In this document: piece by piece, positions 4,726 through 7,574 of the stretch
Layout: each line of letters starts with the position of its first letter
Position numbering within the stretch: position 1 is the first letter of the stretch
Assembly: GCA_048939465.1 (NCBI GenBank)
Contig: JBHLPL010000093.1
Span: forward strand, 1-7,574
DNA length: 7,574 nucleotides
Reading direction: 5' to 3'
From: Promethearchaeota archaeon
GTDB taxonomy: Archaea; Asgardarchaeota; Odinarchaeia; Odinarchaeales; JBHLKK01
Program-made: the position numbers and the translations under genes
Notes under the pieces: generated by a model
Database searches by the model: none
What the model was told of the DNA's origin: nothing
Seen by the model: only the letters and a program-made list of their open reading frames with translations

Positions 4726-5929
4726 CTAAGTTTTTTTCATCAAAGCTATGAAGAATCCTGGCGTATCATGCAGATCGGGATAAAATCGCTGTAGATGCTT
4801 CGCTTCAGGGAATTGCTCTTGCAGTTCACCAGACGACCCGTATAAATAGACTTGATCAATAACAGAAAAACCGAAATGCTCCGTTGCATATTTGATATTA
4901 GATTCATTCTCTTCAGCCGATAAAGTGCATGTACTGTAAGCAATGATGCCGTCTTTCTTTACGAGTTTCCCGGCTACGCCAAGAAACTGCCTCTGGTATG
5001 CTGCACACGCTAATATTTCATTTCTTGTCTTTGTCTCATACAATTTAGGACGATGGCCCAGAGCAGAGCATGGGGGATCGATTAGTACGCGATCTGCTCT
5101 TAAAGAATACTCTTCAGCCAATCCGAGGGCATTCCGCTGAAGAATCTTGACATTGGTTATACCCAATCTCTGAGTGTGATGGTTTAGTGTTTGGAGACGA
5201 GACGGAGAACGATCTACAGCCAATATTGTTCCCCTGTTATTCATTAGCTGAGCCATGTGTGTGGTTTTTCCACCTGGTGCAGCGCACATATCAATGATAA
5301 ATTCATTTGGTTTTGGGTCCAGAATTCGACTTGTTAGAATAGCAGGTAGAGATTGACCGTAGAAATATCCTAACTGATACAGTGGTGTTTCTCGCAAGCT
5401 TAAAACATGGTATTTGGATTTGATAACCTCTACAGCTAATCCTCGTCTCTTCTGAAGTATCTCTTTACTACTCATCTTTGCTATACCAGTAGCTATACGG
5501 TTACCATATTTGTCAACTATGAGAGTCTTATCTCCAGGATGGATTTTGCCTGTTTTAATTACTCCAGGCGCATAGAGACAGGCACCCAGCATCACGCTTT
5601 CTGCTGCGAAATTTATCCGCTACAATCCTCTTGTCAGCATCCGGTATATCGAAAGGGCCCTTGACAGGAAAGGAAATCATTTCGGTTATCTTCATATCGG
5701 ATTTAGCTTCTACGCCTTTCTCAGCCAGTAGGCTGATAAGCCGTTCTGGTGAAATTCTAATAGTGTTTGCCCTAATGGTGTAATTCTTTCCGGGCTTTCT
5801 TAATGCAGCAATAATGCGTTCTGCTCGATTCAGACCGTATGATTCGATAAACACTCCAATAACGTCTGAGGAGTAACCATATTTCTCTGATAAAACCATA
5901 ATATCCGAACCATGCATATGAACCACCAT
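4726..5929 (-). CDS. PUA-domain RsmB/NOL1/NOP2 RNA m5C methyltransferase (NSUN6-like), interrupted by one extra nucleotide at 5608-5611
   Basis: ORF 5555-5929 (EKYGY, TIRANT, KRIVADKF) and ORF 4726-5595 (GACLYAPGV, QSLPAILTSRILDP, IDMCAAPGGKTTH, VLIDPPCSALG, YSTCTL, RFYPDLHDTPGFFIA) join as DKF-AAESVMLGA if one base of TTTC is skipped. Confidence 0.88.
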
Positions 5930-7055: not shown

Positions 7056-7574
7056 TCACTCAGTGCCTGATTTCCAGTCGGAAAGATACTTTATTTGCTC
7101 TTCGGTTAACTTGTCAATCGATATTCCTAATGCCTCCAGTTTGAGTTTTGCAACTTGCTCATCAATCTCTGGAGGAACTTTGTACACATCTGGCTTGAGT
7201 TCACTGCCATACTTTACCAGATACTCTACGGAAAGCGATTGGTCACTGAAGGACATATCCATAACCTTTCCAGCCCATTTATCTTGGGACGCTGGGGTGG
7301 CCTTTTCCGCCTAGAACCATGAATCACGGCTAGCCTGCGGCGGCCAGATTTACTAAACGTCCCTCAGCAAGCAGATATAATCTTCGACCATCTTTTAGCA
7401 TGTACTCATCCACATTTGGTCTAATTCTTTGTTTTTTGACGGTCATGGCCTCCAAATCTGACAGGGCGAGCTCCACATTGAATTGACCCGTTGAAGGAGA
7501 CTCCAACGTGTGGCCTGTGTTGGCAAGTATCGCCCCATCCTTCATCAACTCCATATGCTCCTTACGAATGACAT
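7056..7574 (-). CDS. ahcY: S-adenosyl-L-homocysteine hydrolase, 3' part; spliced from exons 7574-7510, 7482-7335, 7304-7290 and 7267-7056
   Basis: Spliced product: [92 protein letters not shown]...[43 protein letters not shown]. This is the typical SAHH C-terminal half, with frame conserved across all junctions. Confidence 0.95.
7268..7289 (-). other. 22-nt BHB mRNA intron in ahcY (frameshifting if retained)
   Basis: Minus strand: ACC-CCAG-CG|T-CCCA-AGATAAA-TGGG-CTGG-AA|A-GGT, a strict BHB. Splicing gives AGC GAG GTT ATG (SEVM). Confidence 0.92.
7305..7334 (-). other. 30-nt BHB mRNA intron in ahcY (contains in-frame TAG and TGA)
   Basis: Minus strand: TGGCC-G-CCGC-AG|G-CTAG-CCGTG-ATT-CATGG-TT-CTAG-GCGG-AA|A-A-GGCCA. 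Splicing gives GCA GAA GGC CAC (AEGH). Confidence 0.92.
7483..7509 (-). other. 27-nt BHB mRNA intron in ahcY (in frame, no stop)
   Basis: Minus strand: GGCC-AC|A-CGTTGGAG-TCTC-CTTCAACG-GGTC-AA|T. Central helix GGCC/GGTC, two 3-nt bulges, 8-bp intron hairpin, weak exon helix. Splicing gives GGC CAC TTC AAT (GHFN). Confidence 0.88.

Follow-up and report, generated by a model that had tools for sequence, protein, structure and literature searches.

An archaeal ahcY gene whose straight reading is interrupted three times raises the question of how its owner could make a full-length SAH hydrolase (SAHH). The window (the whole stretch of DNA analysed, 7,574 nucleotides) is one contig, C24, end to end, of a metagenome-assembled Asgard genome, G000 (1.96 Mb, 152 contigs, 43% G+C, 91% complete). 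Once three segments are taken out, its last part (minus strand, 7056-7574) encodes the C-terminal 145 residues of the enzyme in an open frame running ...ANTGHFNVE...LVNLAAAEGHPSEVMDMSF...SGTE. The contig stops inside ahcY, and contig C118, which starts with an exact 77-nt overlap, holds the N-terminal two thirds. DNA alignment with intact orthologues places two further inserts there, making five in the gene.

We consider it probable, at roughly 0.85, that ahcY is a six-exon gene with five bulge-helix-bulge (BHB) micro-introns that are cut by the tRNA-splicing endonuclease EndA and joined by RtcB, so that only the spliced mRNA would encode full-length SAHH. Positions and motifs are collected in Table 1.

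Table 1. Positions and motifs of the ahcY exons and introns, of other interrupted genes and of further features mentioned in the text. Contig C24 is the window; paired positions and letters of a helix are given as 5' strand with 3' strand.
Feature	Contig	Position	Strand	Length	Details
ahcY third exon, 3' part	C24	7510..7574	minus		leaves the window, resumes on C118
Intron i1 (third of five)	C24	7483..7509	minus	27 nt	phase 0, between GH and FNVE
i1 motif	C24	central helix 7515-7512 with 7488-7485; bulges 7511-7509, 7484-7482; inner 7508-7501 with 7496-7489			central GGCC/GGUC, 4/4; bulges ACA/AAU; inner 8 bp; outer 1 bp
ahcY exon 4	C24	7335..7482	minus	148 nt	FNVE...LVNLAAA and first base of Glu codon
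Intron i2 (fourth)	C24	7305..7334	minus	30 nt	phase 1
i2 motif	C24	central helix 7340-7337 with 7310-7307; bulges 7336-7334, 7306-7304			central CCGC/GCGG, 4/4; bulges AGG/AAA; inner CUAG/CUAG (4 bp), resuming after a 2-nt bulge, 5 more pairs; outer offset by one base
ahcY exon 5	C24	7290..7304	minus	15 nt	last two Glu-codon bases, G H P S, first base of next Glu
Intron i3 (fifth)	C24	7268..7289	minus	22 nt	phase 1
i3 motif, full hBHBh'	C24	outer 7298-7296 with 7266-7264; central 7295-7292 with 7273-7270; bulges 7291-7289, 7269-7267; inner 7288-7285 with 7277-7274			outer ACC/GGU, 3 bp; central CCAG/CUGG, 4/4; bulges CGU/AAA; inner CCCA/UGGG, 4 bp
ahcY last exon	C24	7056..7267	minus		VMDMSF...SGTE; stop codon 7056-7058
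Small HTH gene	C24	6721-6990
Stretch with no long ORF	C24	5930-6720		about 800 bases
RsmB/NOL1-type RNA methyltransferase gene	C24	4726-5929	minus		+1 frame change within 5555-5600
ahcY 28-nt insert	C118			28 nt	after GGCEE; central 3/4 (A.A mismatch); inner 9 bp; outer 8 bp
ahcY 32-nt insert	C118			32 nt	after KWDFD; central 4/4; inner 11 bp; outer 2 bp
Insert in amidohydrolase (deaminase) gene adjoining ahcY	C118	about 3276	minus	27 nt	in-frame TGA; between CHTHAAMT and LLRGYADD; central CAUG/CAUG; bulges ACA/AUU; inner 5 bp
Insert in EF-2 gene	C68	~10930		31 nt	after EEQERG
Insert in gatA-like amidase gene	C77	~44577		32 nt	outer and inner stems about 10 bp each
Insert in aIF5B-like GTPase gene	C69	~18530		29 nt
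Insert in another GTPase gene	C113	~460		24 nt	with stop
Insert in pyrG	C116	~17814		31 nt
Open frame with one RtcB copy	C31	2961-5708	minus	973 aa
Match to 3' part of i3	C11	22897-22915			19/19; intergenic

Layout and geometry of the inserts

The consequences of leaving the inserts of the window in place differ from one to the next: i1 would add nine in-frame residues and no stop, i2 would bring TAG and TGA into frame, and i3 would shift the frame. Excision at the BHB positions regains the conserved motifs GHFNVE, AAAEGHPSEVMDMSF, GGCEETTTG and KWDFDN, and the predicted junctions in the window are GGCCAC^TTCAAT for i1, GCCGCAG^AAGGCC for i2 and CCCAGCG^AGGTTATG for i3.

The canonical archaeal BHB motif is composed, on its 5' strand, of an outer helix, a 4-bp central helix, a 3-nt bulge and an inner helix, and, on its 3' strand, of the inner helix, the central helix, a 3-nt bulge and the outer helix. 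Cleavage falls after the second base of each bulge, as follows from the standard 37/38 tRNA intron. We fixed the boundaries of the inserts solely by DNA alignment with the intact orthologues of three genomes of the same order (G003, G004 and G006), and all five pairs of boundaries lie after the second base of each 3-nt BHB bulge. In each motif the exon supplies the 5' strand of the central helix, and the intron pairs with it through its 3' end. The sequence-only reading had described three introns in ahcY, of 27, 30 and 22 nt, each with a 4-bp helix, two 3-nt bulges and an intron hairpin, and had held that cuts after the second bulge base restore the SAHH sequence and that retention would add nine residues, bring two stops or shift the frame. 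All three inserts are real and lie where it placed them, the coordinates of the motifs were verified with all four central pairs formed in i1-i3, the cuts coincide with the boundaries set independently by orthologue alignment, and the effects of retention are as it claimed; its count fell short by the two inserts on C118.

A fit of this kind is rare by chance. None of 80 shifted registers matched the BHB criteria for any of the inserts, and the letter shuffles that fitted numbered, per 20,000, 80 for the 28-nt insert, 19 for the 32-nt insert, 4 for i1, 10 for i2 and 2 for i3, which gives a product of about 4e-17 across all five. Folding energies of the motifs in the window have MFE z-scores that are not significant (-1.9 for i1, -1.0 for i2 and 0.0 for i3), and those of the two upstream introns are -4.7 and -3.5. 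The support for the motifs in the window is geometric and comparative, not thermodynamic. With respect to the strict hBHBh' form, the inner stem is present in all five introns (4-11 bp), and the outer exon-exon stem is good for i3 and the 28-nt intron, offset by one base in i2, and poor in i1 and the 32-nt intron, which are of the relaxed HBh' type. An Rfam search of the window gave no match.

Blastn of the five introns against the genome returned only the introns themselves and one match of i3 on C11, which indicates that the ahcY introns are not a repeated element. The exception concerns the 3' part of i3 (CAAGATAAATGGGCTGGAA), which recurs in full upstream of a gene for a metallo-beta-lactamase-fold protein, at a place with no evident gene context or BHB motif; the match may be due to chance or may be a relic of intron movement.

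Conservation and selection among relatives

Both other species of the genus (G001 and G002) have the same five inserts at the same positions. Intron-less ahcY genes in relatives, which the sequence-only reading had proposed looking for, are found within the order: G003, G004 and G006 have none of the five inserts and their genes are intact. In G001 and G002, i1 is the same 27 nt with one substitution in the loop, and across G000, G001 and G002 the length of i2 is 30, 30 and 32 nt and that of i3 is 22, 20 and 21 nt. With the five inserts removed, the three genes align without a frame-breaking gap and translate to complete SAHH, and in this spliced frame pairwise dS is 0.39-0.43 and dN/dS is 0.06-0.08. 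Judged by these rates, the spliced-frame ahcY is under strong purifying selection and is not a pseudogene. The inserts differ by 5-7% among the congeners, against about 32% raw divergence at synonymous sites, and are thus themselves constrained. Differences in length between the species are confined to the inserts and ignore the reading frame, which argues that the inserts are not translated.

The inserts are also found as DNA in independent metagenomes. Eight studies of sediments, mangrove and other, yielded runs that contain the stretch, and a contig from an independent study covers 7104-7559 with one mismatch and no gap, including all three inserts; no joint without an insert was seen in that comparison of DNA. 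Between co-occurring strains, indels are limited to one base in the loop of i3 and to TA in i2, which is 32 nt long in other metagenome strains. One contig, from run X5, follows the exon upstream of i2 (to 7335) at an identity of at least 85% and then continues ...GHPSSVMDM without i2 or i3; it represents a co-occurring relative whose allele lacks the introns at the i2 and i3 sites.

Three further lineages of this phylum have an insert at the position of i3, which falls within the Glu codon of PSEV; these inserts measure 34 nt (G017 and G037), 31 nt (G030) and 191 nt (G040). Across the seven genomes and four lineages, the inserts at this site range from 20 to 191 nt and are unrelated in sequence from lineage to lineage, and the site is empty in genomes of the same GTDB families, namely G027 beside G017 and G037, and G010 and G039 beside G030. 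All seven sequences are paired at 4/4 positions of the central helix and have an outer helix of 3 bp and an inner stem of 4 bp or more. The inner stems are unrelated (CCCA/UGGG, UUGC/GCAA, GAAGC/GCUUC and CCACAUGU/GCAUGUGG), and consequently all four inner pairs change on both sides. Compensatory change on both sides also affects the second pair of the central helix, which has changed from CG to UA in G030, where the exon strand has gone from CCAG to CUAG and the end of the intron from CUGG to CUAG. Two ahcY genes have inserts at other positions. That of G040 contains a further insert of 29 nt with a perfect motif (central helix UGGG/CCCA, inner stem 10 bp), and that of G023 an insert of 32 nt (central helix AUUG/CAAU, inner stem 11 bp).

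Splicing enzymes, tRNA genes and other interrupted genes

The genome contains two EndA genes (PF01974), on C90 and C139. The protein encoded on C90 resembles the catalytic alpha subunit in the heterotetramer of Aeropyrum pernix (3p1z_B, E 1.5e-44), aligns without gaps through the region before the conserved core and keeps the catalytic His (GPGIDHSPF). The C139 protein is EndA-like and has Val at the position of the catalytic His of Methanocaldococcus jannaschii. Together the pair points to an (alpha-beta)2 EndA, a class reported to cut relaxed and non-tRNA motifs (PMC2738675; PMC5829648). There are also two RtcB genes (PF01139). The sequence-only reading had supposed that the lineage uses EndA and an RtcB-type ligase for multi-intron mRNA splicing, and this gene set, with a predicted catalytic subunit, a His-less one and two RtcB copies, agrees with it.

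One of the RtcB copies lies within a much longer open frame on C31. Pfam matches it in two blocks, positions 1-57 and 45-426, separated by about 1.4 kb, and the gene may therefore contain a large in-frame insertion, for example an intein. In the same genome two matches to the ESCRT-II (EAP30) domain exceed the Pfam cut-off, an indirect sign of an Asgard archaeon.

Although the genome is 91% complete, ARAGORN recognised no more than 15 tRNA genes, of which 12 contain an intron, and this fits a lineage rich in BHB introns; most of its tRNA genes are probably too interrupted for recognition. Non-canonical tRNA introns have been reported in other Asgard classes (PMC11291895; bioRxiv 10.64898/2026.10.13.758758).

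We propose the following course of events. The primary ahcY transcript would contain five micro-introns of 28, 32, 27, 30 and 22 nt, the last three within 7268-7509, and each intron would form a BHB motif with its flanking exon sequence. The tRNA-splicing endonuclease, a putative heteromer in which a catalytic alpha subunit is combined with a structural subunit that lacks the His, the architecture known for relaxed substrates, would cut after the second base of each 3-nt bulge. An RtcB-type ligase would then join the exons, the introns would presumably be freed as small circles, and full-length SAH hydrolase would be encoded by the spliced mRNA only. Cleavage, ligation and the enzymes that would perform both are what we infer from sequence; very probably, the ahcY mRNA needs five cut-and-rejoin events by tRNA-splicing enzymes.

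Other genes of this genome appear to be interrupted in a similar way. We compared 1,658 ORFs of the G003 chromosome with G000 by ungapped tblastn, gene by gene, and chained the matches. The 1,041 ORFs with matches show only nine gaps of 10-250 extra bases that disrupt the frame or include a stop. Of these, eight are 24-32 nt long; the ninth, of 11 nt, looks spurious, as does a low-scoring 31-nt gap on C116 near 37,025 (bit scores 22 and 34). The same survey turned up very few frame changes of 1-4 bases. The genes for EF-2, the gatA-like amidase, the aIF5B-like GTPase and the other GTPase, together with pyrG, are broken at conserved motifs and have BHB-like flanks, several of them relaxed. From its motif and its in-frame stop, the methyl-cycle gene that adjoins ahcY, encoding the amidohydrolase, appears to need BHB splicing too. 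Of nine homology-defined gaps in other genes, one passed a strict filter that demanded a 4/4 central helix and a contiguous inner stem of 4 bp or more, and inspection by hand found relaxed motifs with mismatches, of varying strictness. We estimate from these alignments a lower bound of roughly 1% of genes interrupted in this way, and ahcY is the most interrupted gene in the survey.

The earlier suggestion that core genes are affected in this lineage is borne out to the extent that EF-2, pyrG, the gatA-like amidase, the aIF5B-like and the other GTPase and the deaminase have similarly broken, putatively intron-bearing genes. The accompanying proposal to scan the genome for BHB motifs in apparently broken genes succeeded in part. 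The homology survey found further broken genes. Bare BHB motif counts across the genome, alone or with an ORF-bridging rule, were equal to those at random positions or with decoy bulge sizes; in such a scan a few dozen genuine motifs are lost among about 1,000 or more that arise by chance, and the ORF rule fails where exons are short.

Two other places in the window deserve mention. The RsmB/NOL1-type RNA methyltransferase gene, which encodes a ferredoxin-like N-domain, a PUA domain and the methyltransferase, contains a +1 frame change at GAT AAA TTT C GCA GCA GAA, between ...ADKF and AAESVMLGA. A sixth BHB intron was considered for this split and rejected, the frame change being of 1 nt. The site is identical to the letter in G001 and G002, and the AAA TTT C GC arrangement is also present in G003 of the same order; it is therefore not a sequencing error. 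It is a candidate for a conserved programmed +1 frameshift (UUU-C slip) or for a two-ORF arrangement. Between this gene and the small HTH gene lies the stretch that has no long ORF and no Rfam match. Several of its segments are prone to form hairpins, and an interrupted RNA gene could lie concealed there.

Alternative readings and known systems

It is possible that EndA cuts the ahcY mRNA for purposes of control or decay, with poor religation or conditional splicing, the introns serving as a switch that ties ahcY to tRNA-splicing capacity. The motifs are predicted EndA-type substrates, the introns are more conserved than synonymous sites, leaving room for a function beyond removability, and endonuclease-initiated mRNA decay is known for the yeast TSEN (PMC10485636). 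We nevertheless regard this reading as unlikely, because an organism cannot do without the full-length enzyme when it has a single ahcY, and the conservation of the introns is also explained by the need for the BHB fold. Selection on all six exons in the spliced frame further means that productive ligation must occur, to which control or decay might be added as a second layer.

The inserts could instead be passed over during translation, by ribosomal bypassing (hopping) or frameshifting, or simply be translated in the case of the 27-nt insert, with no splicing of RNA. The last option gains some footing from i1, which is in frame without a stop, such that frame logic alone leaves its translation possible. 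For bypassing there are the hairpins and a stop right after the take-off site (TGA after GAT in the 32-nt insert); a hairpin and a stop near the take-off site resemble the bypass of phage T4 gene 60. However, the take-off and landing codons are unmatched at all five sites, and three of the inserts split a codon (phase 1), where the conserved Glu is regained only when the BHB cut brings G together with AA or AG. The covariation, moreover, keeps the BHB with its bulges and stems and not merely a hairpin. Such a translational explanation is very improbable.

That ahcY is a decaying pseudogene, its inserts junk that happens to form hairpins, might be supposed from the stops and frameshifts that break the gene at the DNA level, and automated calling would flag it. 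The dN/dS of 0.06-0.08 that the three species show in the spliced frame, at a dS of about 0.4, speaks against decay, as do the retention of the five inserts in all three species, with greater conservation than at synonymous sites, and the odds of about 4e-17 for a five-fold fit to the BHB register by chance. The sequence-only reading had named a decayed copy beside an intact second ahcY as the finding that would tell against splicing; neither is seen, for no second ahcY was found in the 91%-complete genome and its sole copy is under the selection described. We give the pseudogene reading very little credence, less than translational bypass. Assembly or binning artefacts, or a minority DNA variant, might be suspected from the fragmented genome and the contig break inside ahcY, and are barely credible given that the break is an exact 77-nt overlap, that the same inserts are present in two other species-level genomes and that contigs of several independent studies contain them too, with a single mismatch in the contig that covers all three.

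Spliceosomal micro-introns of the ciliate or nucleomorph type were also considered and rejected: there is no GT...AG or AT...AC, and i1-i3 begin with AC, GC and TC and all end with AA.

Splicing by EndA and RtcB, then, is the reading of ahcY that we prefer. An extension of it, which we hold tentatively and think somewhat less probable than its negation, is that EndA-dependent mRNA splicing is an ordinary step of gene expression in a number of Asgard lineages, acting on core genes such as ahcY, EF-2, the aIF5B-like gene, pyrG and the gatA-like gene; the PSEV intron would then be either inherited from a common ancestor of distinct families or a recurrent insertion at a hot spot set by the proto-splice site. 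If this is true, the prokaryotes most closely related to eukaryotes would have an intron-exon structure with micro-exons down to 15 nt, and essential mRNAs that depend on the tRNA-splicing machinery. A gene with five such introns, a 15-nt exon and an intron site common to four Asgard lineages would by itself show that the EndA route can support genuine multi-exon genes, and that essential metabolism and translation can rest on EndA and RtcB. Gene callers would systematically mislabel such genes as pseudogenes or fragments, and would thereby distort estimates of Asgard genome completeness and metabolic reconstructions. The ahcY gene would be a concrete, testable system for the gain, retention and loss of introns in archaeal relatives of eukaryotes.

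Non-spliceosomal removal of a very short mRNA intron with a change of frame is familiar from HAC1/XBP1 of eukaryotes, where the intron of XBP1 is 26 nt long. There the protein endonuclease IRE1 acts on stem-loops, followed by the ligase Trl1 or RtcB, and an RtcB-type ligase is also proposed for ahcY. The endonuclease and motif are different, and HAC1/XBP1 splicing is regulatory and stress-induced, whereas ahcY has five constitutive-looking introns and would depend on the tRNA-splicing enzyme.

The multi-intron tRNA genes of the Thermoproteales and of the Asgard classes Atabeyarchaeia and Jordiarchaeia/Freyarchaeia (PMC11291895; bioRxiv 10.64898/2026.10.13.758758) resemble ahcY in having several short BHB introns in a short transcript, at non-canonical positions and with repeated lineage-specific gains. 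Their introns are in tRNAs and not, as in ahcY, in a protein-coding gene; introns in protein-coding genes are not reported in these two papers.

The archaeal mRNA targets of EndA in the literature that we searched are only two, cbf5 in a coding sequence and HVO_1309 in a leader, and a review from 2023 held that more archaeal mRNA cases were probably still to be found (PMC10485636). The BHB intron in the 5'-UTR of HVO_1309 of Haloferax volcanii is, like those proposed for ahcY, an EndA substrate within an mRNA (PMC7714728; PMC10485636), but it lies in an untranslated leader, leaves the frame uninterrupted and belongs to a host with a homodimeric EndA.

The closer parallel is the BHB intron of the cbf5 pre-mRNA of Crenarchaeota (Watanabe 2002; Yoshinari 2006; Yokobori 2009, PMC2738675). 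In both cases a tRNA-type BHB intron, often relaxed, is found in a protein-coding gene of a host with a hetero-oligomeric EndA, and the introns are distributed patchily among relatives, which implies gain and loss. The splicing of cbf5 has been shown by RT-PCR and in vitro cleavage, whereas ahcY is known from its DNA sequence. The cbf5 gene has one intron, and it is the sole reported coding-sequence case; ahcY has five, with exons down to 15 nt, in an Asgard-type host in which at least six other genes are interrupted. What would be new here is the presence of five putative cbf5-type introns in one metabolic gene of an Asgard archaeon.
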